This document shows, one piece after another, positions 5,514 to 48,101 of a stretch of 56,578 nt of DNA (the stretch's first letter is position 1; every line of letters begins with the position of its first letter). Position numbers and translations under genes: made by a program. Below the pieces are notes generated by a model that was not told where the DNA came from, made no database searches, and worked only from the letters and a program-made list of their open reading frames with translations. Source of the stretch: a virus (taxonomy: Duplodnaviria > Caudoviricetes); the IMG/VR virus record IMGVR_UViG_3300030012_003637, positions 1 through 56,578 of that record. One strand, given 5' to 3'.

Positions 5514-6464
5514 ATGATAAGAACAGCAGAATGTATAACACCAAAGCATCCAGATAAGATATGTGATAGAATATCTGATGCTATTTTAGATGCTTGTTTG
5601 GAGCAAGATCCAAACTCAAGAGTTGCAATAGAAACAATGGGAGGTCATGGAATTATATCTGTGACAGGAGAGCTAACAACATCAGCTTATGTAGAAATAC
5701 CTGATATAGTTAGATCAGTATATGACGATGAAATAGGCATACAGGTAAATATAGTTAAACAGTCTCCTGAAATATCTCAAGGAGTAGATACTGGAGGAGC
5801 AGGAGATCAAGGAATAATGATAGGTTACGCATGTAATGAAAATGAAGAAATGGTTCCGGAAGAATATTATTTAGCTCGTAAACTATGTAAAGAAATATAT
5901 AAGAAATATCCTTTTGATGGTAAAACTCAAATAACTATTAATGAACATAACCAAATAAGGGTAGTAGCTTCTTTTCAAAATGCTCCTGCAGCAGAGTTAG
6001 GTAAGATTATTACTAACTTTTTTATGCCTACTAATTATTCAGTTATAGATGTACATTGTAATCCTGCTGGAGATTGGAATATAGGAGGATTTACAGCTGA
6101 TACTGGTTTAACTGGAAGAAAATTAGCAGTAGATAACTATGGACCTAGAATTCCTTTGGGAGGAGGTGCCTTTTCAGGTAAAGATTGTTCTAAAGTAGAC
6201 AGAAGTGCTGCATATGCTGCTAGAAAAGTAGCGGTAGATTATTTAAAAAAATATAATGCTAAAGAAGTTTACGTAACTCTAGCTTATGCTATTGGATATG
6301 ATCAACCTCTTCAAGCAACAGCTACAGTAGATGGCAAACAAATTATTATAGAAGATTATGATTTATCTCCTAATGGAATATGTTCTATGTTAGACTTAAA
6401 GAAGCCTATATTTAGTAAAACTGCTGAATGGGGACATATGGGAAATAACTTTAATTGGAAATAA
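5514..6464 (+). CDS. metK: S-adenosylmethionine synthetase
   Basis: HPDKICDRISD, GAGDQG, DTGLTGRK, GGGAFSGKD, KVDRSAAY. Confidence 0.95.
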   Translation: MIRTAECITPKHPDKICDRISDAILDACLEQDPNSRVAIETMGGHGIISVTGELTTSAYVEIPDIVRSVYDDEIGIQVNIVKQSPEISQGVDTGGAGDQGIMIGYACNENEEMVPEEYYLARKLCKEIYKKYPFDGKTQITINEHNQIRVVASFQNAPAAELGKIITNFFMPTNYSVIDVHCNPAGDWNIGGFTADTGLTGRKLAVDNYGPRIPLGGGAFSGKDCSKVDRSAAYAARKVAVDYLKKYNAKEVYVTLAYAIGYDQPLQATATVDGKQIIIEDYDLSPNGICSMLDLKKPIFSKTAEWGHMGNNFNWK

Positions 6465-6588: not shown

Positions 6589-7026
6589 ATGAGTACATTA
6601 GAAATCTTTGAAAGGCATTTTAGTCCTTTCGACATCCTTTTTAGGAATCAATTCAAATCTGACAGCACATTTCAACCTGTTGGAAATTTTAAACAACCAC
6701 ATCCACTTAATATTTTTTACGATGACGCAGGACTTAACTTTGAAGTTGCCTGTACTGGTCTTACTAAAAAAGATATAGTATTAGATATTGAAGGGGATAT
6801 TTTAAAAATTAGTTATACTAAACCTTTTGAAGAAAGAGGTGATGATGGAGAAATCCATCCAGGAATGATCCATAACGGGTTATCTAAAAAATCATTTGAC
6901 TTAAGATATAAAATAGCACCTAAATTTGATTTAGGTAATATAGATGCTAAGTTAGTAAATGGTTTATTAGAGATCTTTATACCATTAGCTGAAGAAGCTA
7001 AACCAAAATCAATTAAAATTAAGTAA
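6589..7026 (+). CDS. Small heat shock protein (Hsp20/IbpA-like)
   Basis: Alpha-crystallin motifs: AKLVNGLLEIFIP and C-terminal PKSIKIK. Confidence 0.9.
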   Translation: MSTLEIFERHFSPFDILFRNQFKSDSTFQPVGNFKQPHPLNIFYDDAGLNFEVACTGLTKKDIVLDIEGDILKISYTKPFEERGDDGEIHPGMIHNGLSKKSFDLRYKIAPKFDLGNIDAKLVNGLLEIFIPLAEEAKPKSIKIK

Positions 7027-7031
7027 ATTTT

Positions 7032-7052
7032 ATTGCTCTCGAGTTGGATCTT
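7032..7052 (+). repeat. 3' arm of the 21-bp long-range inverted repeat flanking hsp20
   Basis: ATTGCTCTCGAGTTGGATCTT, complementary to 6519-6539; overlaps the GTTG box of the groES promoter. Confidence 0.8.
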
Positions 7053-7074
7053 AAGTATATTTTAGTTATATTAT
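7043..7074 (+). promoter_or_regulatory. Early-type promoter (groES-groEL)
   Basis: GTTG-N20-TATATTAT. Confidence 0.7.
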
Positions 7075-7090
7075 AATAAAAGAAAGTTAT

Positions 7091-7402
7091 ATGTCAAAAA
7101 CATTGCAACCCTCTAACGATAGAATACTCCTTAAACCTATAGATGAAGGAGAAAAAACTTACGGTAATATTGTTATACCCGATATGGGTAAAGAAAAACC
7201 TGAATTAGGTGAAGTATTAGCAGTAGGACCTGGAAGAATGTCTGAGTTCGGTCATATGATCTTAATCAGATCTTGTAAAGTTGGAGATCTCGTATTAGTA
7301 CCTAAAATCGGTACTTTAAGAATAGATTTTGAAGGAGAAGAGTATTATATTGCTCAAGATAAAGAAGTATTAGCAGTAGTAAAAGAATCAGATAATGAAT
7401 AA
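7091..7402 (+). CDS. groES: Co-chaperonin GroES
   Basis: LQPSNDRILLK, GNIVIPD...KEKP..GEVLAVGPG, VGDLVL. Confidence 0.95.
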   Translation: MSKTLQPSNDRILLKPIDEGEKTYGNIVIPDMGKEKPELGEVLAVGPGRMSEFGHMILIRSCKVGDLVLVPKIGTLRIDFEGEEYYIAQDKEVLAVVKESDNE

Positions 7403-9038
7403 AAAAATAACATTTTCAAAAGAAGCTAGAAATAGACTAGCTCATGGAGTTGATCAATTAGCAAATGCTGTAACATCAACGTTAGGACCTTCCGGAAGGA
7501 ATGTAATTATAGAACAAGATATGGGTAATCCTGTATCAACTAAAGATGGAGTAACTGTAGCTAAATCTATTACATTAAAAGGTAAGGTAGAAAATTTAGG
7601 AGCTCAAATAGTAAAGCAAGCAGCTATAAAAACAGCTGACTTTGCTGGAGATGGTACAACTACATCTACTCTATTAGCTCAAGAAATATTAAAAGAAGGT
7701 TTATCTAAAATGGATGATGGAAGTAATGCAGTCGATATCAAAAGAGGTATAGATAAAGCTTCAAAAGGAATCGTAGATTTACTCTATGAAAATTCTAAAG
7801 ATATTACTGATGAAGAGCAAATAAAGCAAATTGCTACTATATCAGCTAATAATGATAAAGAAGTTGGTGAGTTAATTTCAACAGCCATGGACAAGGTAGG
7901 TAGAGACGGAGTAGTTACAATAGAAGAGTCGAAAACAGGTGAGACATATTTGGAAACGGTAGAAGGAATGCAATTCGGCAGAGGTTATAAATCTCCGTAT
8001 TTTGTCACTGACAATAATTCTATGACATCTATTTTAAAAGATCCTTTTATCCTTATCGTAGATAAAAGACTTAATCAAGTCAAAGAGTTACTTCCTATCT
8101 TGGAGGCTGTTTCTCAACAAAATAAATCTTTATTAATTATAGCTGAAGACATAGATGGTGAAGCTTTATCTACTCTAGTAGTAAATAAAATGAGAGGTAT
8201 ATTAGCTTGTGCTGCTGTCAAAGCTCCTGATTTTGGAGATAGAAGAAAAGCTATCTTAGAAGATATAGCAGTATTGACTGGTGGTCAAGTAGTATCAACT
8301 GAAAAAGGTATGAGATTAGATAAGTTTGATTCTGCCTGGTTAGGTAAAGCTAATAAAGCAACAGTTTCAAAAGATACTACTACTATTATAGATGCTAAAG
8401 GTACTGAAGAAACTATAACCGAAAGAGTAGATCAAATCAAAACTATGATAGATGAATCTAATTCACCTTTCGAAAAAGAAAACTTACAGAATAGATTAGC
8501 TAAGTTTATTGGAGGAGTAGCAATAGTACATGTAGGAGGTCATACTGAAATAGAGATGAAAGAGAAAAAAGATAGAGTTGAAGATGCTTTACATGCTACT
8601 AAAGCAGCCTTAGAAGAAGGTATATTACCTGGAGGTGGTATAGCTTTACTTAATGCTGCTAATAAGTTACTCGATAAATTAGGCGATGTTACTAATAAAG
8701 ATGAACTTAAAGGTTACCATATAGTAATGAACGCTTGTGAAAGACCTTTCTTTAAGATCTTAGAAAATGCAGGTATCTCAGACTCTAATACAAAAAGTAT
8801 TGAAAGTAAAATTAGAGAAGAAGATACTCTTTGGGGAGGATATAATCCAAGAATATCTAAGCATGTAAATATGTTTGATGATGGTATTATAGATCCTACT
8901 AAAGTAACTAGATTAGCTCTAGAGAATGCAGCTTCTGTAGCTGGTACATTATTAATTACTGAAGCAGTAGTATCAAAAGGAAAAGAAAAAGAAAATCAAC
9001 AACCTGGAGGTGTAGATCCAAGCATGCTTTTAGGTTAA
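7395..9038 (+). CDS. groEL: Chaperonin GroEL
   Basis: [43 protein letters not shown]. Confidence 0.97.
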
Positions 9039-9054: not shown

Positions 9055-9222
9055 ATGGATAAACAAGAATTATTTGAACAAATTGAAGAGCAATTTATTA
9101 TTCTTCAAGAAGAAAATGGTAAATCAACTAAAGCTTCTCAAGCAAGAGCTAGAAAAGCAGCAGGTGAAATTAAAAAACTAATTACACCTTATAAGAAAGC
9201 GAATATGGAGGCAGTAAGATAG
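9055..9222 (+). CDS. Histone H1-like (Hc1-type) small basic protein, 55 aa
   Basis: MDKQELFEQIEEQF...KSTKASQARARKAAGEIKKLITPYKKANM; KAxxxRARK helix typical of Hc1-like proteins; not in the track. Confidence 0.7.
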   Translation: MDKQELFEQIEEQFIILQEENGKSTKASQARARKAAGEIKKLITPYKKANMEAVR

Positions 9223-9265
9223 GGGGCGTTTTTCCCTCATCGACGAAGTCGCCACGCGCGAATTT
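9218..9265 (+). repeat. GC-rich structured element, copy 1
   Basis: GATAGGGGGCGTTTTTCCCTCATCGACGAAGTCGCCACGCGCGAATTT; homologous to 51462-51516. Confidence 0.7.
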
Positions 9266-9324
9266 AAAAAACTCTTAGATTGGAAACGAGCATTGCTGCC
9301 TAAAGTACGTCTAAGGGTTTTTTT
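9266..9324 (+). terminator. Probable intrinsic terminator with a 28-nt loop
   Basis: AAAAAACTCTTAGAT pairs with GTCTAAGGGTTTTTT and ends in a T-tract. Confidence 0.55.
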
Positions 9325-22933: not shown

Positions 22934-23122
22934 ATGATTAAAAATGAAAAATTAACTTCGGTAAAAATTACACAACCTTTATTCGATGAATTTAAAATGG
23001 CTTGCTTGCAAGACAACTTTTCTTTTAAAAAGCTTGCAGATCGGGCAATTTTTCTTTATCTTACTAATAAGGACTTTAAAACTAAAATACATAGAGTTAC
23101 ATCCATAAAGTTAAAAAAATGA
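22934..23122 (+). CDS. Ribbon-helix-helix-like DNA-binding protein
   Basis: KLTSVKI beta strand followed by two helices; 62 aa. Confidence 0.55.
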   Translation: MIKNEKLTSVKITQPLFDEFKMACLQDNFSFKKLADRAIFLYLTNKDFKTKIHRVTSIKLKK

Positions 23123-24552
23123 TAGAAGGTTATATACCAAGAGATAAACGTAAAAAGATATTACTACTTAGCGATGATTTAAGAATGCACTCAGGAGTAG
23201 CAACTATGTCTAGAGAGATAGTAATTAAAAATTCTCATAGATTTAATTGGTATCAATTAGGTGCAGCATTAAGCCATCCTGAAGTAGGAAAGATATTCGA
23301 TATATCTAAATCTATTACTGATGTAACTGGAGTAGAAGATGTCGAAGTAAAAGTACAACCTAATGTAGGATATGGTAATCCAGATTTAATAAGGCAGATA
23401 CTTAAGCTTGAGAAACCAGATGCTATTTTTATATTTACTGATCCAAGATATTGGGTATGGTTATTTGAAATAGAAAGAGAAATAAGAAGTAAAATTCCTA
23501 TCTTTTGGCTCAATATTTGGGATGATTATCCATCACCTATTTATAACAAGAATTTTTATAACTCAGTAGATTTACTGATGGGTATATCTAAACAAACAGT
23601 TAATATTAATAAGTTAGTATTAGCAGAAGAAGCTAAGAATAAAGTTATTGAATACGTTCCTCATGGTATAGATGAAAAATTATTCTTTCCAGTTGGTAAA
23701 GATCATGAGTACTATGATAAGTTAGTCGAATTTAAACAGCAAACTATACCAGTTGAAACTGACTTTGTAGTTTATTTTAATTCTAGAAACATTCATAGAA
23801 AGAGACCTGGTGATACGATATTTGCATTTAAATTATTTTGTGATAAACTAACAAAAGAACAAGCAAAGAAATGCGCTTTAGTAATGCATACATCAGTTAA
23901 TGATCAACATGGTACTGATTTAAAAGCAGTTAAAGAAGCTATAGCTCCTGACTTAAACATATTCTTTTCTCAAGGAAAAATAACTCCTGAACAAATGAAC
24001 TTTATGTATAATATGGCAGATGTTACTATGTTATTAAGTTCTAACGAAGGATGGGGATTATCTTTAACTGAATCGTTAATGTGCGGTACTATGATTATAC
24101 CAAACGTTACAGGAGGTATGCAAGATCAATGTAGGTTTGAAAATGAAAAAGGAGAGTGGATAGATTTTGATGCTGACTTTCCTTCTAATCATAGAGGTAC
24201 ATATAAGAAATGCGGTGAATGGGCTGAACCTGTATTTCCATCTAATATAAGTCTAGCTGGTTCTCCTGCTACTCCTTATATATTTGATGATAGATGTCAG
24301 CCAGAAGATGCAGCAGATGCATTATTTAAAGTTTATAGTTACGGTAAAGAAGAAAGGACCAAAAGAGGTAAGTTAGGTCATGACTGGGTTATGTCAGATG
24401 AAGCAAAAATGTCTTCAACGGCTATGGGTAATACTATAGGAGACTGTATGGATAAAGCTTTCAAGAAGTTTAAACCAAGAACGCAGTATGATATAATTAA
24501 AATAGAAAACAGTAAGTCTAAAAAAGTCTTACATAAATTAACAGGGTATTAA
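23119..24552 (+). CDS. Glycosyltransferase, GT4 (GT-B)
   Basis: YVPHGID, RNIHRK, EGWGLSLTE, TGGMQD. Confidence 0.85.
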   Translation: MIEGYIPRDKRKKILLLSDDLRMHSGVATMSREIVIKNSHRFNWYQLGAALSHPEVGKIFDISKSITDVTGVEDVEVKVQPNVGYGNPDLIRQILKLEKPDAIFIFTDPRYWVWLFEIEREIRSKIPIFWLNIWDDYPSPIYNKNFYNSVDLLMGISKQTVNINKLVLAEEAKNKVIEYVPHGIDEKLFFPVGKDHEYYDKLVEFKQQTIPVETDFVVYFNSRNIHRKRPGDTIFAFKLFCDKLTKEQAKKCALVMHTSVNDQHGTDLKAVKEAIAPDLNIFFSQGKITPEQMNFMYNMADVTMLLSSNEGWGLSLTESLMCGTMIIPNVTGGMQDQCRFENEKGEWIDFDADFPSNHRGTYKKCGEWAEPVFPSNISLAGSPATPYIFDDRCQPEDAADALFKVYSYGKEERTKRGKLGHDWVMSDEAKMSSTAMGNTIGDCMDKAFKKFKPRTQYDIIKIENSKSKKVLHKLTGY

Positions 24553-24695
24553 TGGACAATAATAATCAATCTAATGGTAATACTCAATTGAATCAACTAA
24601 GAAATGACTTCAACGAAAGAATTGGTCATAAAAAAATCTTAGGGAGTTCTTTGAGAGTACAATTAAATAAAAGAAGAAGATACAGAACAATATAG
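24552..24695 (+). CDS. Small basic hypothetical protein (47 aa)
   Basis: MDNNNQSNGNTQLNQLR...KRRRYRTI*; coupled start TAATG; not in the track. Confidence 0.55.
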   Translation: MDNNNQSNGNTQLNQLRNDFNERIGHKKILGSSLRVQLNKRRRYRTI

Positions 24696-24708
24696 TAAAG
24701 TTATAATA

Positions 24709-25986
24709 ATGGATAAAACCTCAGTTGTAGTAAGTTGCCCTATAGATACTTATTCAGGCTATGGAGCACGAAGTAGAGATTTAGTTAAAGCATTAATAGC
24801 TTTAGGTGAATACGATGTTAAAATATTAGCTCAGAGATGGGGTACAACCAGGACAGGTTATCTCAAAGAACATCAAGAGCACGATTTACATTCTAGGGTA
24901 ATACCTAATATCAATAGTAAACCTGATATATGGATCCAGATAACTGTTCCTAATGAGTTTCAACCAGTAGGTAAATATAATATAGGTATTACAGCAGGTA
25001 TAGAAACTACTTTATGTCCTATGCCATGGATCGAAGGATTAAATAAAATGGATTTAGTTCTTACTTCTTCTAACCACAGTAAGAAAGTTCTAACAGAATC
25101 TAAATGGACTGTTACTCATAAGCAAACTAAAAAAGAAGAAAACCTTTTCTGCAATACTCCTATAGAAGTTTTATTTGAAGGAATCGATAATACTAAGTAT
25201 AAAGTAGACCCTAATAATAATTTTGATTTATCTTCTATTAAAGAAGAGTTTTGCTTTTTATTTGTAGGACATTGGTTACAAGGAGATTTTAAACATGACA
25301 GAAAAAATATAGGATATACAATTAAAGCATTCCTTCAAACGTTTAAAAATAAACCTAACCCTCCAGCTCTTATACTAAAGACTCAACATGCTAATGCATC
25401 ATTAATAGATTTAGATGCTATAAAAGAGAAGATTAATTCAATAAGATCTACTCTGAAAGGTAAACTGCCTAACATATATATTATTCATGGTGAAGTTTCT
25501 GATAAACAGATTAATGATTTATATAATAACCCTAAAGTAAAAGCTATGGTATGTTTAACTAAAGGAGAAGGATTCGGAAGACCTTTATTAGAATTTAGCG
25601 TAGTTAAAAAACCTATCATAGCATCAGGATGGTCAGGACAGGTTGACTTTTTAGATCCTATGAAAGCAGTACTAATTGGAGGTGAGTTAGAAAACGTTCA
25701 TCAATCAGCTGCTATTAAGGATGTTCTTCTTCCTGAAGCTCAATGGTTCCAAGTTGATGATGGTGATGTAGGAAAAGCATTAAAATCAGTTCATACTAAA
25801 TATAAAAAGTATGTACCTCTAGCTAAGCAATTAGGTTTTAAAAATCAAAAAGAATTTTCATTTGAAAGTATGACAAAAAAATTAGGAGAAATATTAAAAG
25901 AAAATTTACCTGAATTTCCTAAACAGGTAGAACTTAATTTACCTTCTTTAAATATTCCTAAAATAGAATTACCTAAACTTAAATAA
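24709..25986 (+). CDS. Glycosyltransferase, GT4 (GT-B)
   Basis: SGYG, FLFVGHW, RKNI, GEGFGRPLLE, WSGQVDF. Confidence 0.85.
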   Translation: MDKTSVVVSCPIDTYSGYGARSRDLVKALIALGEYDVKILAQRWGTTRTGYLKEHQEHDLHSRVIPNINSKPDIWIQITVPNEFQPVGKYNIGITAGIETTLCPMPWIEGLNKMDLVLTSSNHSKKVLTESKWTVTHKQTKKEENLFCNTPIEVLFEGIDNTKYKVDPNNNFDLSSIKEEFCFLFVGHWLQGDFKHDRKNIGYTIKAFLQTFKNKPNPPALILKTQHANASLIDLDAIKEKINSIRSTLKGKLPNIYIIHGEVSDKQINDLYNNPKVKAMVCLTKGEGFGRPLLEFSVVKKPIIASGWSGQVDFLDPMKAVLIGGELENVHQSAAIKDVLLPEAQWFQVDDGDVGKALKSVHTKYKKYVPLAKQLGFKNQKEFSFESMTKKLGEILKENLPEFPKQVELNLPSLNIPKIELPKLK

Positions 25987-25987
25987 T

Positions 25988-26449
25988 ATGAAATTAGATA
26001 AAGATAAAATGGTTGAAGGTCCTTTTGGTAGTAATGCTTGTTATGAGCAAACTTTTATACAAGAAGGAAATGAAATTAAAACGTGGTTATGTTTTGGAAG
26101 CGGCTTTACTACTTCTACATTAATGACTAAAGGTTCTAAAGTAGTTAAAGAGCTTAAAGAAACCTCTCCAGAACTGTATAAAGATCTTCTACATACAGAT
26201 AAAGAAAATAGAGTATGGGCTCCAGCTACTATTACCCTTCCGGAAAAGGGGATGGTGTTTTTAGACGGCACAAGCAAGGAAGTATGGCAGTGGGCAGCTG
26301 TTAAATCTACTCTTATTACTGAAGAGGATAGAAAAACTAAAAAGTTTCCTAAAGACCAAACTCATAAAATGGATATGAAAAATATAAAACATTTTGGTCA
26401 AAGAGAATTTATGGATGCTTTAGAATATATAGATTTTTATATGGTATGA
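25988..26449 (+). CDS. Hypothetical protein
   Basis: 153-aa ORF inside the glycosylation cluster. Confidence 0.7.
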   Translation: MKLDKDKMVEGPFGSNACYEQTFIQEGNEIKTWLCFGSGFTTSTLMTKGSKVVKELKETSPELYKDLLHTDKENRVWAPATITLPEKGMVFLDGTSKEVWQWAAVKSTLITEEDRKTKKFPKDQTHKMDMKNIKHFGQREFMDALEYIDFYMV

Positions 26450-27069
26450 AAATAAGCTATGCTATTACTGTATGTAACGAATTTGTAGAGATACAAAAAC
26501 TTATTTCATTTCTTTTACAGCATAAAAGAGACGAAGATGAGATAGTAGTTTTATACGATGAAGTAAATGGAGATGAAGAGGTTGAAAACTTTTTAAGAGC
26601 AAAAAGTGTTAACTTAGATTTTATGTGGTGGAATGGAGTATTTAATAATCATTTTGCTGATTGGAAAAATACTCTCAGAGAAAGATGTAATGGCGATTAT
26701 ATATTTCAAATAGATGCTGATGAATTACCTCATTGTGATCTTATAGCTAACCTTCCTAGCGTTTTAGAAAATAATCCTGATAATGAAGTTTACTTAGTTC
26801 CTAGAGTAAATACAGTCAAAGGGTTAACTAATGAGCATATATCTAAATGGAGATGGAATGTTAACGATAAAGGTTGGGTAAACTGGCCTGATTATCAATG
26901 GAGAATATGGAAAAATAAACCAGAAATAAAATGGGTTAATAAGGTACATGAAAAATTAGAAGGTTATAAAACTTTTGCACCATTACCTGAACTAGAAGAA
27001 TATAGTTTATCACACCCTAAAACTATAGAAAGACAAGAAAAACAAAATAAATTTTACGATACATTATGA
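26446..27069 (+). CDS. Glycosyltransferase, GT2
   Basis: YAITVCNE, IFQIDADE, WPDYQ.R, KVHE. Confidence 0.85.
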   Translation: MKISYAITVCNEFVEIQKLISFLLQHKRDEDEIVVLYDEVNGDEEVENFLRAKSVNLDFMWWNGVFNNHFADWKNTLRERCNGDYIFQIDADELPHCDLIANLPSVLENNPDNEVYLVPRVNTVKGLTNEHISKWRWNVNDKGWVNWPDYQWRIWKNKPEIKWVNKVHEKLEGYKTFAPLPELEEYSLSHPKTIERQEKQNKFYDTL

Positions 27070-28208
27070 AAAAAATATGGTACGCCCCTTATAAGTTCGA
27101 ATCATACGGACAAGAAGAAATAGACGCAGTAGTTAAATCATTAGAATCAGGATGGCTTGGAGGTCAAGGACCAAAGAGCGTTGAATTTGAAAAAGCTATA
27201 GCAAAAAGATTTGGTAAAAAATACGGAGTGTTTGTAAATTCAGGCTCATCAGCTTGTTTATTAGCAATAGCAGCTTTAGACTTACCGAAAGGATGTAAGA
27301 TAATTACCCCAGCATGTACTTTTGCTACTACTTTAGCTCCTATTATTCAGTTAGGGTTTAAGCCTATATTTGTAGATGTTGGATTAACAGATTATGTAGC
27401 TAATATAGATGAAGTATTAAGTAAAGTAGACGATGATGTTAAAGCTATTATGTTGCCTAATTTAATAGGAAATAAACCTGACTGGTATAAGCTTAAAGAA
27501 GGTCTGAGAAATATGGGCAGAGACGATGTTTTCCTTATAGAAGACAGTGCTGATACCATTACTAAGACAGATGTAACTGATGTTGCTACTACAAGTTTTT
27601 ATGCTTCACATGTTATTACTGCTGGAGGAGTAGGAGGAATGGTAATGTATAACGATAACAAACATGTTACTAAATGTCTTCAATATAGAGATTGGGGTAG
27701 ATTAGGAAACGATTCTGAGATTATGGACGATAGATTTAATCACTCAGTAGATGGAATACCTTATGACCATAAATTTTTATATTCAGTATTAGGTTATCAT
27801 ATGAAAGCTTGTGAAATGAATGCAGCATTTGGTTTAGTTCAGTTAGAAAGATTTAAAAAATTCTCTGATATTAGACGAGCTAACTTTAAAAGATATTTAG
27901 AACTGTTAGATGGAGTAGGAGATTTAATACTACCGGATGATAGCATTGAACCTAATTGGTTAGCCATTCCTTTACAAACTGAAAAGAGATTTGAGTTACT
28001 AACATTTTTAGAAGACCACAATGTACAGACTAGAGTAACCTTTGCAGGTAATGTAACTAGACATCCAGTTTATAGAGAGTATTTAGATGACTTTAAAAAT
28101 TCAGATACTATTATGAAGAATGGTTTCTTATTAGGAGCTCATCATGGAATGACTATAGAAGATGTAGAACACGTTTGTGGTTTAATAAAAGTATTTTTTA
28201 ATAAGTAA
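27066..28208 (+). CDS. DegT/DnrJ/EryC1/StrS PLP enzyme, RfbH/ColD-like sugar 3-dehydratase
   Basis: VNSGSSA, IEDSAD, SFYASHVIT (His instead of the Schiff-base Lys), RDWGR. Confidence 0.85.
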   Translation: MKKIWYAPYKFESYGQEEIDAVVKSLESGWLGGQGPKSVEFEKAIAKRFGKKYGVFVNSGSSACLLAIAALDLPKGCKIITPACTFATTLAPIIQLGFKPIFVDVGLTDYVANIDEVLSKVDDDVKAIMLPNLIGNKPDWYKLKEGLRNMGRDDVFLIEDSADTITKTDVTDVATTSFYASHVITAGGVGGMVMYNDNKHVTKCLQYRDWGRLGNDSEIMDDRFNHSVDGIPYDHKFLYSVLGYHMKACEMNAAFGLVQLERFKKFSDIRRANFKRYLELLDGVGDLILPDDSIEPNWLAIPLQTEKRFELLTFLEDHNVQTRVTFAGNVTRHPVYREYLDDFKNSDTIMKNGFLLGAHHGMTIEDVEHVCGLIKVFFNK

Positions 28209-28209
28209 A

Positions 28210-28836
28210 ATGGAATATATAGAATATAGTACAGAAGATTATCCTTTCAGAGGAATTATAGAAGAAGTATTACAGACTAAAGATTTAGAAAGAATACATA
28301 GTATGGCTGATTATGAGCTTTTTGTTAAAGGAACTGATCAATCTACTATTTGGCATAAAAGGTATTATGATAATTTAGATAAATTTTTACCTTTATATGA
28401 TAAGTTTATTAATGAAGTTGTTAAACCTAGTTTCGGTGAAGATATAGTCTATCAAAAAATCCCTACTTTTAGAACACAGTTAGTTAAGAATTTAGGAGTA
28501 TTTGAGTTTCATAGAGATAGAGACTATGCTCATAACGAAGAAGAGAGAAACTTCTTTTTACCTTTTACCGATGCATATGCTACTAATACTATATGGGTTG
28601 AATCTGAAGAAGATAAAGCAGATTATTCTCCTATGACTACCCTATATGGTCAAGTAGTTAAGTGGAATGGTAATAGTCTTATGCATGGCAATAAGCAAAA
28701 TACTACTTCCAATACCAGAGTTAGTGTTGATTTTAGATGTATTCCTTTATCTAAGTATTCAGAAGAAGAAGGAGCTGCTGCTATATATTCTAAAATGAAA
28801 TTTAAAATAGGCGATTATTATAATGTCACTAAATGA
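28210..28836 (+). CDS. Fe(II)/2OG-dioxygenase-like (StrG-like) protein
   Basis: YQKIPTFR, FHRD, HGN, TRVSVDFR. Confidence 0.6.
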   Translation: MEYIEYSTEDYPFRGIIEEVLQTKDLERIHSMADYELFVKGTDQSTIWHKRYYDNLDKFLPLYDKFINEVVKPSFGEDIVYQKIPTFRTQLVKNLGVFEFHRDRDYAHNEEERNFFLPFTDAYATNTIWVESEEDKADYSPMTTLYGQVVKWNGNSLMHGNKQNTTSNTRVSVDFRCIPLSKYSEEEGAAAIYSKMKFKIGDYYNVTK

Positions 28837-29495
28837 AGACTTTAGTATTAGGAGACGGTATTTTAGGATCAGAAATCGTAAAACAGACTGGCTGGGAATT
28901 AATGTCTCGGAAAAAGACAGGTTTCGATATAAACTCAACAAGTCTAGAGGTTCTTAACGATTACGATATAGTTATAAATTGTATAGCTAATACTGATTGT
29001 TACTCACTAAGTAAAATAAAACACTTAGAAATAAATTATAATTTTCCTAAAAGGTTATCTGATTACTGTGTAAATAGAGGAATTAAATTAGTTCATATAT
29101 CTACTGAATTTGTATATGCTAATAACAAATATGCTCCTAATGAGGAAGATAAAGCTATTCCAGATAACACTTGGTATGCTAAAAGTAAATTACTAGCTGA
29201 TAATTATATTGAACTTACTAATGAGAAAGCTTTAATTTGTAGAGAGCTTCACAAACCTAATCCTTTCCCTTATAAAGAAGTATGGAAAATAAGAACAACA
29301 GGCGATACAGTAGATAAAATAGCAGATTTAATTATTCAGTTAATAAATAAACACGCTGTAGGAATATATAATGTTGGTACTGGATGTAAATGGTTAAAAG
29401 ACCTTGCACCTAATTGTAAAGAAGTAGATGCTCCTGATTATGTTCCTTTCGATACTACAATGGACTTAACTAAACTTAATACTTTTTTAAGATAA
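28833..29495 (+). CDS. rmlD: dTDP-4-dehydrorhamnose reductase-like SDR
   Basis: LGDGILG, INCIA.T, HISTEFVY, YAKSK. Confidence 0.75.
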   Translation: MKTLVLGDGILGSEIVKQTGWELMSRKKTGFDINSTSLEVLNDYDIVINCIANTDCYSLSKIKHLEINYNFPKRLSDYCVNRGIKLVHISTEFVYANNKYAPNEEDKAIPDNTWYAKSKLLADNYIELTNEKALICRELHKPNPFPYKEVWKIRTTGDTVDKIADLIIQLINKHAVGIYNVGTGCKWLKDLAPNCKEVDAPDYVPFDTTMDLTKLNTFLR

Positions 29496-30376
29496 TGAAA
29501 GATGTTTACTTTATTGTAAAAGATATAGAAGGTAAGACTTATCCTTCTAATTACCTTCTAGGTAAAATGGTATCTGAAAAATTAAATAACCATGGAATGA
29601 ATACAAAAGTTATTGATTCTATACAAGGGTTAAAAGATAGTATTTTAATTTTTAATGGCTCTTTGATAAAAGAATATGATTTAAATAAGCATACATTAGA
29701 GATGTTAAAAGGTAGAAATAATAAATTAGTTCTTAATCCTTGTGACTATTTTATTTGGATGACTTATGAAGAATTAGAGCTTTACCCGTACATGGATGCT
29801 TTTATATTTCCTAACACTCAGTATAAAAATATGATAAAAGGATTAACTGACGATCAAATTATATCTGTTATTCCGCATCATTATGATCATAGATTCGATG
29901 GAGTTAAAGTTGAAAAAAGAAAAGATTTCTGTGTAGGATATTTTGGAGTTCCTTATAAAGATAAATATTTTATACCTGATACTAGCCCAGATTGGTTAAT
30001 TTATAATATAGATTTAAGAATAGGAGAATTAGAATATGAAGCTCAGAAATTTCATGTACACTTCTCTCATAGGAGTCCTTCTTCGTTAGATTTTTTCTTA
30101 AAACCTGCTACTAAATTAGCTATAGCATCAGCAAGTAATGTTGCTTTCTTAACTTCTAAAGATACATCAGTTATGGATTTTTTACCTGAAGACTATCCTT
30201 TATTTATTTCAGAAGATTTAGATGATTTAAATAGTAAATACGAATTATTAAAAAGTAAGTTTGGGACAAAAGAATGGAAAGATTACGTAGGATTTATTAG
30301 TAACCTAAAAGAAAAATTTGATTTAAATTACCAACAAAAAGATTATAAACTATTGTTTGAACGATTATCTGAATGA
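29495..30376 (+). CDS. Glycosyltransferase-like protein
   Basis: VIPHHYD, VGYFG, KPATKL GT-B-like features. Confidence 0.5.
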   Translation: MKDVYFIVKDIEGKTYPSNYLLGKMVSEKLNNHGMNTKVIDSIQGLKDSILIFNGSLIKEYDLNKHTLEMLKGRNNKLVLNPCDYFIWMTYEELELYPYMDAFIFPNTQYKNMIKGLTDDQIISVIPHHYDHRFDGVKVEKRKDFCVGYFGVPYKDKYFIPDTSPDWLIYNIDLRIGELEYEAQKFHVHFSHRSPSSLDFFLKPATKLAIASASNVAFLTSKDTSVMDFLPEDYPLFISEDLDDLNSKYELLKSKFGTKEWKDYVGFISNLKEKFDLNYQQKDYKLLFERLSE

Positions 30377-31038
30377 ACTTAACTATAGCTATAGATGATG
30401 TGAACCCTCTGAAAGGTTGGAGAATATTTGGTGATGATACTGAAAAGTATTTATTTGATCTAAATAAAACTTTCGGTGTAAAATTTACTTTATTTATTCC
30501 TTCTAATTATCATAATGAAGCTCCAATATCTAAAGATAAAAATTGGATAACAGACCTTAAAGATTCAGGTATATTTGAATTAGCAGCTCATGGTCATTTT
30601 CATCAAACTTCTAATCCTAAACGCTTAGGAGAGATGGAGTTTGCTGAATTAAGCAATGAAGAAGATATTCAAGATAGAATAAAATTAATGTTTGAAGAAT
30701 GGAATAAAGTAGGAATCAAACCAATAGGATGGAGAAATCCAGGTTGGATATGTCATCCATTAGCTAAAAAATACCTGGAAAATAAATTTGAATATGCTGC
30801 TTTACATTATGATCATAACAATAATCTTAAATGGAAGCTTAAAGAAATATTTGGTGCTGATGGAATACATGAGACTAATATTACTACTCACAAAGATAAT
30901 ATTATGTTACATTCACACATTTGTGGAGACTGGAATGATAATGTTTGGAATGAAAATAATTACAAACAATTAAACTTATCGTTGGAATTCTTATTTAAAA
31001 ATTATAAATTAGATAATAAAACTATAGCTGAATTATGA
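30373..31038 (+). CDS. Polysaccharide deacetylase-like (NodB/DUF2334)
   Basis: IAIDDV, FTLFIP, ELAAHGHFH, GWRNPGW. Confidence 0.75.
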   Translation: MNLTIAIDDVNPLKGWRIFGDDTEKYLFDLNKTFGVKFTLFIPSNYHNEAPISKDKNWITDLKDSGIFELAAHGHFHQTSNPKRLGEMEFAELSNEEDIQDRIKLMFEEWNKVGIKPIGWRNPGWICHPLAKKYLENKFEYAALHYDHNNNLKWKLKEIFGADGIHETNITTHKDNIMLHSHICGDWNDNVWNENNYKQLNLSLEFLFKNYKLDNKTIAEL

Positions 31039-31943
31039 AAGTAGCTTTTTTTACAGAGATGAATTTCATAGGAAAAATTCCTAGAAATCATACTAATATG
31101 AGAACTGAATTTGCTTGGATGGTAGCTTTAGATGCTGATCATTATAATATTAATCAAGTCCCAGAAGATAAATATGACTTAGGTATCATAATAATTCCTA
31201 AGAAAAATCCTGATATAGATCTAGCTCAAATTAAAGAGTACTGTAATAAGGTAGCAGTTATGCAAGAAGGTCCACATTGGTATTTTCAAGATTATGATAT
31301 AGCTAGACAAGTTCATTATTATAATAGCTTACAAAAGGCTGATATTATATTTGCACATAATAAAAAAGATAAAGAATACTATCAAGGACTAACTCAACAT
31401 AAAGATATTAGAGTTATGCAATCGTTAATGATAGAAGATAGTATAGATATTAATTCTTTAACTGATAGTAAAGATAGAAAAAATTGTATTATAGGAGGTA
31501 ATTTTGTATCATGGTATGGAGGTTTTGATTCATTTATTGTAGCTAATAATGTATTTAAATCAGATGAAATATATGCTCCTTCAATGGGAAGAAAGCAAGA
31601 AGGAGAAGAAAATTTAATAAAGCATATTCCTTATACTGAATGGAATGACTGGATAAAACAACTTAGTAAATTTAGAGTAGGAATACATCTAATGAGAACT
31701 CATGCTGCAGGAACTTTTGCATTAAACTGTGCTTACTTAGGGATTCCTTGTATAGGTTATAAAGGTTTAGATACTCAAGAAACTTTACATCCATCTCTAA
31801 GCATAGACGTAGGTGATATAAATAAAGCTAATGAATTATTAAAGACTTTAAATAATAATAAAGATTTTTATGATAAGTGTAAAGAAGAAGCTAAAAAAAA
31901 CTATGATAAGTTTTATCATGAGAGAAATTTTAAAATAGATTAA
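31035..31943 (+). CDS. Glycosyltransferase-like protein (GT-B)
   Basis: AAGTFALNCAYLGIPCIG GT-B C-terminal motif. Confidence 0.6.
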   Translation: MKVAFFTEMNFIGKIPRNHTNMRTEFAWMVALDADHYNINQVPEDKYDLGIIIIPKKNPDIDLAQIKEYCNKVAVMQEGPHWYFQDYDIARQVHYYNSLQKADIIFAHNKKDKEYYQGLTQHKDIRVMQSLMIEDSIDINSLTDSKDRKNCIIGGNFVSWYGGFDSFIVANNVFKSDEIYAPSMGRKQEGEENLIKHIPYTEWNDWIKQLSKFRVGIHLMRTHAAGTFALNCAYLGIPCIGYKGLDTQETLHPSLSIDVGDINKANELLKTLNNNKDFYDKCKEEAKKNYDKFYHERNFKID

Positions 31944-31944
31944 T

Positions 31945-32385
31945 ATGAAAAAATATAAATTAGGATTCACAGCAGGTAACTTTGATTTATTACACCCTGG
32001 TTACATATATACATTTCAAGAAGCTAAAAGACATTGTGATAAACTATTAATTTTTCTACATGAAGATCCTTCTGCAACTAGATATAGTAAATACAAACCA
32101 GTTATATCTTTATATGAAAGGTATAATGTTCTTATGGCCGTACAGTATGTAGATGAAGTAGTTACTTATCAGACTGAGGAAGATTTAATAAAGTTAATAC
32201 AATTTTATAAACCTGATTTAAGAATATTAGGAGACGATTATATAGGCAAAAGATATACAGGAGATCATTTACCTATTGATGTAATTTTTACTACAAGATC
32301 CCATGGATGGTCAACAACTAAACTTAAAAACTTAATTACTAAACAAACTATGAAGCAAAATCCTGACGTAATAAAAGAAAAATAG
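31945..32385 (+). CDS. Cytidylyltransferase (TagD/RfaE-like)
   Basis: GNFDLLHPG, VDEV, GDDY, WSTT. Confidence 0.85.
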   Translation: MKKYKLGFTAGNFDLLHPGYIYTFQEAKRHCDKLLIFLHEDPSATRYSKYKPVISLYERYNVLMAVQYVDEVVTYQTEEDLIKLIQFYKPDLRILGDDYIGKRYTGDHLPIDVIFTTRSHGWSTTKLKNLITKQTMKQNPDVIKEK

Positions 32386-32416
32386 TTGTTTTTCTGATAG
32401 TTTTTTACTATATTAT
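32385..32416 (+). promoter_or_regulatory. Early-type promoter
   Basis: GTTG-N20-TATATTAT. Confidence 0.7.
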
Positions 32417-32420
32417 ATTA

Positions 32421-33308
32421 ATGAGAGTAGTAGTAACAGGAGGTTTCGGTTTTATAGGATCATCATTTGTAAATTATTTAGACTCTTTAGGACATGACGT
32501 CTTAATAGTAGATAAGATTACTTATGCTGCTAATGTAGATAATATTCATGCTGCTAATAATACTATTCTAGCTGTAGAAAAAGATATTTGTGATGTAACT
32601 GCAGAAGATCTAGGAGATTATGAATACTTAGTTAACTTTGCTGCTGAATCTCATGTTGATAATTCTATTAAAGATGGAAGACCTTTTGTTAGGAGTAATG
32701 TAGAAGGAACTTTTAATTTATTAGAACTAGCTAGAAAAAATTCTTATCTTAAAAAGTTTATTCAAATATCAACTGATGAGGTTTATGGCGATATGGAAGA
32801 TTATGGAGAGGGTGTATTAGCTAATGAAACATTTCCTCTCATGGGATCATCATATTACTCTTCTACTAAAGCATCAGCTGATTTATTAGTTCAAGCAGCA
32901 GGACGTACTTATGGACTACCTTATTTAATTACTCGTACTTGTAATAATTTTGGAGTTAAACAGAATAAAGAAAAGTTTATACCGACTATTTTTAACTGTA
33001 TAAATAACGATATTGAAATTCCTATTTACGGTGATGGTAATCAGATTAGAGAATGGATATGGGTAGAAGATAATGTAAAAATACTCTATAAATTAATGTT
33101 AGAAAATACAGGAGTAGAAAATATAGGATCAGGAGATAGATGGACTAACAGAGAACTTATTCAGTTAATAGCTGATATTTCAAATAAAGAGATTAAATTT
33201 AAATTTGTAGAAGATAGATTAGGACATGATACTAGATATGGAATGCAAACTAATTTTCAAGATTATAAATTTAAATTACTAGAAGAATATTTAAAAGAAC
33301 AATTATGA
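32421..33308 (+). CDS. rmlB: dTDP-glucose 4,6-dehydratase
   Basis: TGGFGFIGS, DKITYA, FAAESHVDNSI, STDEVYG, YSSTKAS, DRLGHD.RY. Confidence 0.92.
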   Translation: MRVVVTGGFGFIGSSFVNYLDSLGHDVLIVDKITYAANVDNIHAANNTILAVEKDICDVTAEDLGDYEYLVNFAAESHVDNSIKDGRPFVRSNVEGTFNLLELARKNSYLKKFIQISTDEVYGDMEDYGEGVLANETFPLMGSSYYSSTKASADLLVQAAGRTYGLPYLITRTCNNFGVKQNKEKFIPTIFNCINNDIEIPIYGDGNQIREWIWVEDNVKILYKLMLENTGVENIGSGDRWTNRELIQLIADISNKEIKFKFVEDRLGHDTRYGMQTNFQDYKFKLLEEYLKEQL

Positions 33309-34147
33309 TAGCTTTGGTAACAGGCGGTGCTGGATTTGTAGGTACCAATTTAATTAAAAGACTTCTCAAAGAAGGATACGAAGTAATTAGTATAGATAAC
33401 TACTTTACTGGCTTTGAACATAATCATGTAGATGGAGCTTATTATATCAATGAAGATATTAGAACGATAGATTATGAAGCTTTGAAAAAACCTACTGTAA
33501 TATATCATTTAGCTGCCTTAGCTAGAATACAACCTTCATTTGATAACCCAGTTGAATGTTTTGATATAAATGCTAAAGGTACTTTAAGACTAGCTCATTA
33601 TGCTGCTAAAAATGATATACCTTTATTTTATGCAGGAACTTCTTCTAAACATAGCGGTAAATTTAAAAACCCTTATACGTTTACAAAAGATATTGGAGAA
33701 GATATAGTAAAACTATATCAAGAGCATTATAATTTAAAAGCAAGTATAGCTAGATTTTATAATGTTTATGGTCCTAATCAATTATGTGAAGGTCCATATT
33801 GTACTGTAATAGGTATATGGATTAAAGCATTAGAGGATAGTAAACCTTTATTAATAACTGGAGATGGAGAACAAAGAAGAGATTTTACTCATGTAGATGA
33901 TATAGTAGAAGCTTTGTATTTAATGGATGAGAATCAAGCTTTTGGTTTTGAATTTGAATTAGGTAGAGGAAAAAATAACTCTTTAAATGAGTTAATAGAA
34001 TTTATTAATCCTCCTCAAAAAGAATATATCCCAGCTAGACCTGGAGAAGCTAGAGTTACTCTTAATACCGATCAAACAGCTAGTAAGGTTTTAGGTTGGG
34101 ATCCTAAAATTAATATTGAAGATTATATAAAAAATGGATTTGAATAA
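33305..34147 (+). CDS. NAD-dependent epimerase/dehydratase
   Basis: TGGAGFVG, HLAA, YTFTK, RFYNVYGP, GDGEQRRDF. Confidence 0.9.
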   Translation: MIALVTGGAGFVGTNLIKRLLKEGYEVISIDNYFTGFEHNHVDGAYYINEDIRTIDYEALKKPTVIYHLAALARIQPSFDNPVECFDINAKGTLRLAHYAAKNDIPLFYAGTSSKHSGKFKNPYTFTKDIGEDIVKLYQEHYNLKASIARFYNVYGPNQLCEGPYCTVIGIWIKALEDSKPLLITGDGEQRRDFTHVDDIVEALYLMDENQAFGFEFELGRGKNNSLNELIEFINPPQKEYIPARPGEARVTLNTDQTASKVLGWDPKINIEDYIKNGFE

Positions 34148-35291
34148 ATTTACTTTTGTTATTCCTTCTAGAAATAATCTAGAGTTTTTAAAATTAGCTT
34201 ATGAATCTATACGTAATTTAGAAACTAAGCATGAAATTTTAGTTTTAGATGATGCTTCAGAAGATGGTACATCGTCTTGGATCGAAGAACAAAATGATGA
34301 AGACTTAATAACTTTTTATAATCCTGGACCAGAAAGGATTGGAATAGTAGGAATGTTTGATAAGGGAATAGAATTAGCTCGTACAGATATCATAATGGCT
34401 TTTCATGCTGATATGGTTGCATGTAAAGATTTAGATAAAAATATTCTTAAACATTTAGATAAAGGAGTAGTAGTCTCTGCCACAAGAGTAGAACCTCCTT
34501 TACATCCAGATGGTCCAGAGAAAATTATTCGTAATTATGGAATAGAAGCAGATGAATTTAACTTTGAAGCTTGGTATTCCGGAAGTGAATCATTAAAAGA
34601 AAATAAAACTACTGAGGGTATATTTGCTCCTTGGTGTATGTTTAAAGAAGATTTTTTTAAAGTAGGAGGTCATGATAAATTATTTGCCCCTCAATCTAAA
34701 GAAGACTCAGACTTATTTAATAGATTTCAATTAAACGGATATAAATTTATTCAACCTTGGGATGCTTTAGTATATCATTTTACTTCTAGAGGTTCTAGAT
34801 TTAATAAGTATTCTGGAGGTTCAGCTGGAAAGAATTCAAACGAATGGTTAAAGACTACTACTAAGAATGGAAGAAACTTTTTACGTAAATGGGGTCATTT
34901 TGTAATGCATGATCAGTATATGAAACCTATAATACCTAACAAGTATGATGTTGGCTTTATAATTAAAAATTGTGATAATGATATGCTTGCTTTATTAGAA
35001 CCTTATTGTGATACTATATATGTTGATTGTGACTATTCAGATTATATAAAAGAAGAGCAGCAAAATACTTTAATTAATTTATCAACAAGAGTTTTACCTT
35101 ACGATAATGAAAAGCAAAACTCAATTTTAATTGAAGTAGATAGAAAAGAGTTTAACGAACAAGATATGATTATTATCCAAAAGCTCTCCCAGATATTAGA
35201 TGATAGTGGTAAAGTTGGAGAATTTAAATTAAATAATCTATTTATTAATATAATTAAGTATGAAAAAATTAATCATAGAATTTACGCATAA
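34134..35291 (+). CDS. Glycosyltransferase, GT2
   Basis: VIPSRN, LDDASEDGT, HADM, GGHD..F....EDSD, VYHF. Confidence 0.85.
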   Translation: MDLNKFTFVIPSRNNLEFLKLAYESIRNLETKHEILVLDDASEDGTSSWIEEQNDEDLITFYNPGPERIGIVGMFDKGIELARTDIIMAFHADMVACKDLDKNILKHLDKGVVVSATRVEPPLHPDGPEKIIRNYGIEADEFNFEAWYSGSESLKENKTTEGIFAPWCMFKEDFFKVGGHDKLFAPQSKEDSDLFNRFQLNGYKFIQPWDALVYHFTSRGSRFNKYSGGSAGKNSNEWLKTTTKNGRNFLRKWGHFVMHDQYMKPIIPNKYDVGFIIKNCDNDMLALLEPYCDTIYVDCDYSDYIKEEQQNTLINLSTRVLPYDNEKQNSILIEVDRKEFNEQDMIIIQKLSQILDDSGKVGEFKLNNLFINIIKYEKINHRIYA

Positions 35292-45564: not shown

Positions 45565-45566
45565 TT

Positions 45567-45701
45567 ATGGGAGTATATAGAACACAAAAATTTACTGCTA
45601 TTAAAGATCAAACATCTACAGCAGTTAGTGCACAAAGACAAAATAATCTTAAGGCTATAGTTAATAATTTTATTACTTATTTTAAAGCTAAACATAGTTA
45701 G
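45567..45701 (+). CDS. Small protein (44 aa) coupled to the Hint polyprotein gene
   Basis: MGVYRTQKFTAIKDQTSTAVSAQRQNNLKAIVNNFITYFKAKHS*; starts 2 nt after the stop; not in the track. Confidence 0.65.
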   Translation: MGVYRTQKFTAIKDQTSTAVSAQRQNNLKAIVNNFITYFKAKHS

Positions 45702-45708
45702 TAAATTA

Positions 45709-45740
45709 GTTGCTATTCCGATTATTTTTTCTTATATTTT
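45709..45740 (+). promoter_or_regulatory. Early-type promoter
   Basis: GTTG-N20-TATATTTT. Confidence 0.7.
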
Positions 45741-45757
45741 AATTTAAATGTTATGTT

Positions 45758-46334: not shown

Positions 46335-46351
46335 TAGATAAAGGAAGTAAT

Positions 46352-46594: not shown

Positions 46595-46595
46595 T

Positions 46596-48095: not shown

Positions 48096-48101
48096 GGAAT
48101 A

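Follow-up and report, generated by a model that had tools for sequence, protein, structure and literature searches.

The window analyzed here, that is, the whole stretch of DNA under study, is an entire IMG/VR virus record of 56,578 bases with an estimated completeness of 34%. Its G+C content is ~30%, and all long ORFs lie on the + strand. It represents part of the genome of a marine Flavobacterium myophage that is immuto-like. Megablast of the window against phages gives no match. Near the first copy of the element described below, the gene order is QueF, family A DNA polymerase, MetK, Hsp20, GroES (7091-7402, + strand), GroEL (7395-9038, + strand) and a small basic ORF of 55 aa (9055-9222, + strand) that lies 3′ of groES-groEL. 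The same gene order is found in phage immuto, a 160-kb myovirus of Flavobacterium sp. LMO8 with nearly all of its genes on one strand, where the element (NC_055915, 42439-42492) occupies an unannotated gap 3′ of DNA polymerase, GroES, GroEL and a small hypothetical gene. Besides the QueF homologue and family A polymerase seen in the window, DnaB and DnaG are present in immuto. Immuto DNA is reported to carry, in place of every guanine, a formylated preQ1 base, which is a 7-deazaguanine derivative (bioRxiv 10.1101/2023.04.13.536721).

Two direct copies in the window

The element is present as two direct copies on the + strand, at positions 9210-9263 and 51458-51515, 42 kb apart, a recurrence far beyond chance. 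The 12-mer GTCGCCACGCGC has exactly two occurrences in the window (0.07 expected; none of 100 shuffles reaches two), an 18-nt loop pattern matches the two sites alone (0.01 expected in the window), and a search of both strands finds CACGCGC in the two copies only. A covariance model built from relatives and run over the window with filters off scores the whole of copy 1 at 64.7 bits (E = 2.8e-22) and the whole of copy 2 at 55.1 bits (E = 1.1e-18), with the next-best match at 5.5 bits. Sequence, 12-mer, loop pattern and model scores thus bear out the two sites proposed in a first-pass annotation of this DNA.

Copy 1, which we class as type A, begins with hairpin P1 (9218-9240), in which GAUAGGGGG and UUCCCUCAU enclose the loop CGUUU; this stem is predicted by the model alignment and is also present in the minimum free energy (MFE) fold. 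The stop codon of the 55-aa ORF abuts this copy, with TAG (9220-9222) falling within the 5′ strand of P1. Hairpin P2 (CGAC-GAA-GUCG, 9241-9251), predicted by the model alignment and supported by compensatory changes across the family, is followed by the single-stranded tail CCACGCGC (9252-9259) and then by an A/U-rich flank, GAAUUUAAAAAAC. Folding predicts a terminator-like hairpin with a large loop and a U-run farther 3′, outside the element (9266-9323); the terminator of relatives is compact and starts 9-11 nt past the tail. In copy 2, classed as type B, model and fold place P1 (GAGAGUGAG...CUCCUCUC) at 51462-51490, with an ambiguous register between the G-run and the CU-run. Its P2 has five base pairs (CGACC-GAA-GGUCG, 51491-51503), the tail is again CCACGCGC (51504-51511), and an extra hairpin, P3 (CAUUU...AAAUG, 51511-51534), is a feature of type B copies only. 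The cGAAg hairpin with four versus five base pairs, and an outer stem that differs between the copies yet still pairs, are as originally described.

The earlier account of the surroundings also placed copy 1 in an intergenic region and copy 2 inside a small ORF, which is correct. For the 55-aa ORF, which it called “Hc1-like”, the Pfam Hc1 match is weak (E = 0.0025, 18.1 bits) and falls under the 23.5-bit cut-off. Apart from this weak match, Pfam and PHROGs name no family for the small ORFs or for a gene inserted in relatives.

A degenerate inverted copy had been suggested near position 53717, and we reject this candidate. The covariance model finds nothing at 53717-53755 on either strand at E≤10, and the 13-nt resemblance, in which one mismatch is allowed, is no better than chance, as 30 of 100 shuffles contain at least two matches. 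The stretch encodes the Cys/Ala-rich N-terminus ...LCAFCAASAVLFSC... (MDKLIEKISWQLCAFCAASAVLFSC) of ORF 53701-54324, which to our own eye resembles a lipoprotein signal.

A conserved family in related phages

The proposal that these copies represent an uncharacterized cis-acting RNA or ssDNA motif holds, with ~90 related phage loci, compensatory changes and no corresponding Rfam family; it stands because both a family of further copies and covariation among them were found. The covariance model returns 91 matches (84 distinct) with scores of 26.6-74.2 bits in the 78 loci searched, which are IMG/VR contigs of 31-37% GC. Whole-record searches covered 10 records that are long or complete (94-191 kb); each has one to three strong matches, and immuto has a weak one in addition. 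Where a record has two copies (genomes of 156-191 kb), these lie 37-50 kb apart at syntenic places, the first after groEL.

Four pattern scans of IMG/VR were made. The first gave at least 120 matches, and among the matches listed 11 AT-rich loci carry the whole motif. The second gave 55 loci, comprising 49 AT-rich loci with the whole motif and six GC-rich chance matches, and the third gave 89. The fourth, with the tail left free, gave 91 loci that represent 61 distinct stretches; 18 have another tail, and four of these are seemingly unrelated. The invariance of the GAA loop and of the tail described below is partly built in, because GAA was required in all four scans and the tail in three of the four.

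No convincing copy is present in the bacterial genomes searched. A 19-base pattern gave at least 120 matches in the genome collection, and among the matches listed all are in GC-rich genomes and attributable to chance, while a strict 24-base pattern matched no stretch in species-representative genomes. Searching 151 genomes of the class Bacteroidia with the model yielded seven weak matches (17-24 bits), and the ones that were inspected proved to be hairpins without relation to the element or a duplicated stretch. BLAST against plasmids gave chance matches only, with no similarity to plasmid ssi regions. Rfam 15 gave no match at gathering score over the whole window and none covering either copy at E≤10. 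The element is a new family of conserved phage cis-elements that is absent from Rfam, and its kind, the structured intergenic phage signal, is already known. The literature consulted concerned immuto, PeSLs and N4 hairpin promoters, and the motif itself may exist in print. Its distribution is best explained by a module specific to immuto-like Flavobacterium myophages.

P1 is a helix of 9-12 base pairs, in which a purine run (...GAGGGGG) is paired with a pyrimidine run (CUCUCUC...) through many G·U pairs, and its loop of 5-7 nt is usually CGUUU or CGCUU. P2 adjoins P1 without a spacer and consists of 4-5 base pairs and a GAA loop closed by C-G. Then comes a near-invariant single-stranded CACGCGC, followed by an A/U-rich flank (RAWUUUNRAC, by eye). 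Among the 84 distinct copies, the tail is CCACGCGC in 66, TCACGCGC in 10 and of another form in eight; 82 have GAA as the P2 loop, one has GCA, and the remaining copy has no P2. It is the combination of a G·U-rich helix, a tip like that of DNA mini-hairpins, an invariant tail and an in-frame copy within a gene that is unusual.

Paired cells account for 86.6% of the model alignment, compared with 79.0±0.7% in shuffles, and 100 cells have changes on both sides, compared with 39.5±4.6; none of 500 shuffles reaches either value. Slid controls, in which the partner is moved by 1-3 columns, are 57-70% paired. The clearest compensatory change in the element is in P2, where one pair occurs as GC (37), AU (23), CG (8) and UA (2), and another as AU (44) and CG (27). 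Of the four P2 pairs, all but the closing C-G show 12-13 “unpaired” cells, which are variants with five base pairs that the model misaligns. Variation in P1 is mainly between G-C and G·U, with some double changes in outer pairs, and a conserved G-run and CU-run alone could give this mostly one-sided change. At least five complementary P3 stems can be recognized by eye in type B relatives, including CGGAU/AUCCG, CGAAU/AUUCG, CAUAU/AUAUG and GAUUC/GAAUC. The case for structure rests on covariation because fold energies are not special: z values are +0.53 and −1.03 for the window copies, with a family mean of −0.54 against mononucleotide shuffles, and single-sequence MFE folds often favor other pairings over P2. 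A long-range helix between upstream coding sequence and P2 plus tail, seen in the MFE fold of locus L148, was discarded since it contradicts the covarying P2.

Six copies are model-only (L330:1587, L147:2409, L309:103, G157:70493, G159:49623 and G158:145730). CCACGCG(C/A) is kept in all six, and the full CCACGCGC in five. The P2 loop is GAA in three and GCA in one, and the other two (L309:103-145 and G158:145730) have no P2. Because model-only copies can be without it, P2 is a usual but not obligatory addition to a core formed by P1 and the tail. The first-pass annotation had not seen that P2 is missing in some relatives.

Gene contexts of the element

Sixteen of the 84 distinct copies have a strict terminator, 14 lie before a start codon, 30 are in an open frame and 24 fall in none of these classes. 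The strict terminators start no more than 20 nt from the tail (9-16 nt), and 14 of them do so at 9-11 nt. For copies before a start codon, an ORF of at least 40 aa begins 14-18 nt 3′ of the tail. The residual class includes copy 1 of the window, with its large-looped terminator, and the immuto group, where the next gene begins 31-52 nt on. These counts are affected by a terminator finder that misses some imperfect terminators; the remaining copies mostly have none within 90 nt. For copies outside frames, the distance from the upstream stop codon to the final G in the 5′ strand of P1 is mostly 2-26 nt. The element does not itself pass as an intrinsic terminator, as CACGCGC and a flank of mixed A and U, rather than a U-run, come directly after P2, and a terminator consensus scan called none at either window copy.

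At type A loci of the window and seven relatives, a promoter-like site lies 3′ of the terminator. The genes 3′ of type A copies differ among phages: a SET-domain protein and a phosphoribosyltransferase (PRTase) in the window, where a nucleoside phosphorylase-like protein is also encoded, a FliL-like protein in immuto, and hydrolase-like and other proteins elsewhere. In relatives, two copies can bracket variable inserts, which are a gene of 169-201 aa that is absent from the window, ORFs of 58-65 aa, or a mere 45 nt (L330).

Such arrangements would suit a selfish or recombination module, that is, a GC-rich palindrome at module junctions that mediates cassette exchange without a molecular task of its own. 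Bracketed inserts, differing 3′ genes and a copy held in frame in a gene all favor this view. Selfish GC-rich palindromes are known from AT-rich genomes as REP sequences, Rickettsia palindromic elements and mitochondrial GC clusters, and in-frame insertions of palindromes occur in other AT-rich genomes. The element resembles selfish palindromes of this kind in forming GC-rich hairpins in an AT-rich genome, in following stop codons and in occurring once in frame. It differs from them in its low copy number (one to three in each of 10 long records), syntenic locations, lineage-wise compensatory change and invariant tail. The PeSLs of T4-type phages offer a further parallel: these short sequences, composites of a terminator and a promoter, are described as sites at which exchange takes place (PMC4122927). 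Like PeSLs, the element is short, conserved and intergenic, lies where conserved blocks meet variable ones, has copies that flank inserts and, in the window and seven relatives, has type A copies followed by a terminator and promoter-like site. However, PeSLs join a terminator to an early promoter and are numerous in hyperplastic regions; the element is neither terminator nor promoter, is present in one to three rather than dozens of copies, and has a conserved tail and an in-frame copy. An exchange module without a task also fits poorly with one to three copies at syntenic places in genomes of 156-191 kb, and with copies in the same genome that are not homogenized and carry different P2 stems. 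Moreover, the compensatory changes follow lineage and therefore indicate long-term selection on pairing, and a mere palindrome does not explain a single-stranded tail that is more conserved than the stems. We regard a selfish or recombination module as unlikely.

Highly conserved unpaired nucleotides beside variable stems are also what might be expected of a ligand-sensing riboswitch or of a self-cleaving pseudoknot, in which GCG of the P1 loop would pair with CGC of the tail. The terminator at a fixed 9-11 nt after the tail in 14 copies agrees with a switch, as do the PRTase and nucleoside phosphorylase-like genes that come next in the window of a phage whose lineage makes 7-deazaguanines. 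The loop-tail pseudoknot proposed in the first-pass annotation finds no support, however, as at least nine of the 84 distinct loops are without GCG while the tail is unchanged, and no loop change is linked to the tail variants (CCACGCGC in 66 of 84, TCACGCGC in 10 of 84). Covariation of this pairing cannot show itself because the tail is near-invariant, and the P1 loop has just 5-7 nt if the G-run pairs as modeled. The accompanying suggestion of ribozyme-like activity is not supported either, as there is no match to an Rfam ribozyme or riboswitch even at E≤10. A switch is further disfavored by the differing downstream genes, by the copies inside ORFs or abutting start codons, and by the fact that inspection by eye revealed no attenuator-type pairing alternative to the terminator that is common to all copies. 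We consider this family of explanations highly improbable. An apparent likeness between the tail and preQ1-II riboswitches, type I-C CRISPR repeats or 16S helix 45 was dropped, as it has no model support.

Copy 2 sits in frame within a gene that, judged by its protein alignment, is real and conserved, a placement that the first-pass annotation missed. This gene (51390-51593, + strand) encodes a protein of 67 aa (...GWGFD...SPRAFSTNVSND...CHYSGL...YME), and in an alignment of 22 homologous ORFs GWGFD, encoded 5′ of the element, and CHYSGL...YME, encoded 3′ of it, share one frame. Differences per site at codon positions 1, 2 and 3 are 0.46, 0.34 and 0.55 outside the element, versus 0.28, 0.33 and 0.40 inside it. 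Within the element the amino acids vary non-conservatively (DRRS, PPKV, PPKG) while the base pairs stay. The element is a clear example of a sequence under constraint both as protein and as nucleic acid. The protein matches 160 protein clusters at E≤0.001, none of which is named or has a Pfam domain. An impression by eye that type B spacing is always a multiple of three was withdrawn when a column count did not reproduce it, and the frame rests on the protein alignment. The stretch GGGGCUUUGAUAUGGA 5′ of copy 2 was considered as part of a tmRNA and rejected, with no call by ARAGORN or Rfam; it encodes GWGFD.

A non-coding stretch of ~0.9 kb (51594-52524, + strand) without long ORFs follows this gene. 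Its blocks, which are conserved in distant relatives, comprise AT-rich repeats, a C/U-rich run with a T-run (51828-51857) and a promoter-like site, TAGTTG-N20-TATATTTA (51903-51936). The motif TAGTTG-N20-TTATATT occurs 14 times or more in the window, usually in a gap 5′ of an ORF. The claim of a promoter rests on this longer shared motif, because a loose promoter pattern is not enriched (13 sites versus 10±3 in shuffles).

Possible action as RNA or single-stranded DNA

The pairs of P1 comprise 419 Watson-Crick, 225 G·U and 17 A·C cells in the alignment, and at three positions G·U is more frequent than any other state. In 77 of 84 copies, folding favors the sense over the antisense strand (mean −17.3 versus −12.1 kcal/mol), and P1 as a DNA helix is weak (mean −7.2). 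Pairing state and strand preference together suggest that the helix exists on the transcribed-sense strand only and is read as RNA. In terms of the modeled pairing, P1 carries the probable signature of a sense-strand RNA helix, which as DNA would be mismatched at one-third of its pairs (225 of 661 paired cells). RNA, unlike immuto DNA, is unmodified. Every copy with flanking ORFs that was examined is co-oriented with those ORFs, but with almost all genes on the same strand, a polar DNA signal would be co-oriented in this way as well. Metatranscriptome contigs (three sets, plus one DNA run, compared with 44000-56578) include none from RNA on 50300-52819, a result with no bearing on expression.

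P2 has a different character. It is nearly without G·U (two of ~300 cells) and obeys the C-GNA-G rule of DNA mini-hairpins, and these DNA-like traits count against the RNA reading. C-GNA-G mini-hairpins are reported to be very stable as DNA and much less stable as RNA, with CCGAAGG found in RSF1010 ssiA and GGA or GAA loops in N4 promoters (PMC13037366). A second source describes N4 hairpin promoters with a covarying stem of 5-7 bp and a 3-nt purine-centered loop (PMC4496689). The element might therefore act as an ssDNA signal on the non-template (+) strand, where the P2 mini-hairpin and tail would serve as a hairpin promoter or would mark a site of priming, R-loop formation or replication initiation. 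RSF1010 ssiA, the G4 complementary-strand origin and the N4 virion-RNAP promoters would be its precedents by analogy.

Several observations agree with such a signal. The C-G closing pair with a GAA loop is present in 82 of the 84 copies, with GCA in one, the stem is Watson-Crick only, and a genome holds just one to three copies. Copy 2 borders the conserved AT-rich non-coding stretch with its repeat blocks, a family A polymerase is encoded in the window and DnaB and DnaG in immuto, and at two loci (L165 and L315) the element lies directly 3′ of a terminator. Little RNA is expected from these two copies because of that position. The resemblance of P2 to the mini-hairpins of ssiA, the G4 origin and N4 (PMC13037366, PMC4496689) lies in an identical tip, where C-G closes a loop of GAA or GCA, and in a short stem that covaries and precedes a conserved single strand. 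P2 also has the short stem and 3-nt loop of an N4-type promoter (4-5 bp and GAA, against 5-7 bp in N4; PMC4496689).

Against this reading, P1 as DNA would hold about one-third G·T mismatches, with G·T the conserved state at three positions, so that P1 pairs only if G·U wobble is allowed. The two copies named above that have no P2 are good in other respects, with P1 and the tail retained. In N4 the hairpin lies on the template strand, whereas the GAA hairpin here belongs to the coding strand of the flanking, co-oriented genes, and the T7-like RNAP domain PF00940 was found in none of five records, a weak argument because control genomes are silent too. With ssi and other primase signals the element shares only the mini-hairpin tip, and BLAST detects no similarity to plasmid ssi regions. 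Finally, the replacement of every G in the DNA of the relative immuto may count against a DNA hairpin. An ssDNA signal is a genuine possibility, but one we doubt.

The element is a real, conserved signal, most probably one that is read as RNA where gene blocks end. Our preferred explanation, which we hold at roughly even chances, is that it acts as RNA in the sense transcript and forms a recognition platform that shows CACGCGC to a conserved partner. P1 and P2 would present the invariant single-stranded CACGCGC and A/U-rich flank to a trans-acting partner, which could be encoded by the phage or could be the host's machinery for transcription or translation, and the site of action would be the end of a long transcription unit or the start of the next cistron. 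We infer RNA action, factor binding and an effect on termination from the patterns observed, namely conservation, copy number, strand, hairpin covariation and contexts.

The form of RNA action that we place first is control of termination or read-through at the end of a unit, by analogy with lambda nut or HK022 put, which are RNA signals for processive antitermination. We put it first because of the fixed short distance to the terminator in type A, the low copy number and the two-hairpin-plus-tail design, and we offer it tentatively. Nut and put share with the element a short structured RNA in the sense transcript, few copies per phage, and one or more hairpins with a conserved single strand; type A copies, moreover, follow a small gene and lie just before a terminator. 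This upstream placement holds strictly for 16 of 84 copies, a count made with a finder that misses imperfect terminators. The flank UUUAACAA of some copies may also resemble rrn boxA. The element differs from nut and put in having no known N-like partner, and in that many copies are without a nearby terminator and some lie in an ORF or before a start codon. Read-through would also be less needed at some type A loci because a promoter-like site follows the terminator. An equally tentative alternative is that the element produces a stable processed 3′ end or a 3′UTR-derived RNA with CACGCGC as its contact. Control of translation of the next cistron appears rather improbable. Flavobacteriia phages are abundant in the sea, and their hosts initiate translation without Shine-Dalgarno pairing and have unusual promoters; to our knowledge, very little is known of how gene expression and replication are organized in these phages.

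A signal of ~55-70 nt that is more conserved than the surrounding proteins, stays at the same two module boundaries and is kept even inside a gene points to a key partner, for which polymerase, ribosome, nuclease and primase are candidates. The element thus provides an experimental handle in the cultured relative immuto and is a candidate for a new family in RNA-motif databases.

The RNA-like P1 and DNA-like P2 might also be combined in a single process of dual use, in which an origin couples transcription to replication. The G-rich RNA would stay hybridized, the displaced coding strand would form the C-GAA-G mini-hairpin, and CACGCGC would define the site of synthesis or processing of a primer used by the family A polymerase, in a phage with all-7-deazaguanine DNA. 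We think this coupling unlikely, but if true it would explain the sense orientation of the element, the contrasting properties of P1 and P2, the position at the ends of units and the AT-rich stretch after copy 2.

Copies of the element in related genomes

In relatives, paired copies of the element separated by 45 nt to 1.4 kb enclose different small genes, an arrangement that resembles cassette borders. Two such pairs lie at 1488-1542 and 1587-1640 of locus L330, and at 1467-1519 and 2875-2928 of locus L007. Two nearby copies are likewise present at L348, L314, L308, L078, L046, L357 and L337. Element copies at L309:103-145 and L587:1501-1543 (record G158) retain P1, the G·U-rich hairpin, and the CCACGCGC tail while lacking P2, the C-GAA-G triloop hairpin; a complete copy is also present in the genome with these P2-less forms.

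The best bacterial match of the covariance model reaches 24 bits, at L566 and L571 of the Bacteroidia-class genome G050. These loci are a duplicated stretch in which GCCACGCGG comes after a perfect purine/pyrimidine hairpin of 12 bp, and we judged them unrelated to the element.

The ORF around copy 2 and the adjacent non-coding stretch

The spurious-looking small ORF that carries copy 2 (window 51390-51593; GWGFD...SPRAFSTNVSND...CHYSGL...YME) is a member of a real, widespread protein family represented by 160 metagenomic clusters, none of which has a name or Pfam domain. In short versions of the protein, it is the element's own G-run that codes for GWGF. The gene for a phage-encoded ribosomal protein bS21 (49281-49481; Pfam Ribosomal_S21, E = 8.8e-14) lies ∼2 kb upstream of copy 2.

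Downstream of the ORF, ∼0.9 kb (51594-52524) is devoid of long ORFs, with some blocks kept in distant relatives. Among these conserved blocks are AT-rich repeat blocks (51730-51775 and 52203-52257), a C/U-rich run (CACCCACCTCCCTCCCTTC) that leads into T8 (together 51828-51857) and, 3′ of this run, a promoter-like site. The stretch, which gave no Rfam matches, could be an origin, a regulatory region or the home of a non-coding RNA.

Promoter-like motif and other genes

The motif TAGTTG-N20-TTATATT(TA) recurs in gaps 5′ of ORFs, for example at 13055, 18417, 21329, 32383, 37254, 42697, 45707, 47532, 48100, 51903, 53070, 54322 and 55212, and is similar to the Bacteroidetes -33/-7 promoter type.

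Auxiliary genes (513-1424, 5514-6464 and 6589-9038) encode a QueF-like nitrile reductase, an enzyme of the 7-deazaguanine pathway, as well as SAM synthetase, Hsp20, GroES and GroEL. Because two stretches in its C-terminal half match Hint/intein domains, the sequence of a 729-aa ORF (43375-45564) suggests an intein or Hint-domain protein. Between copies 1 and 2 lies a sugar-modification cluster (23119-35291) of glycosyltransferases, a DegT-type aminotransferase, epimerases/dehydratases and a cytidylyltransferase.
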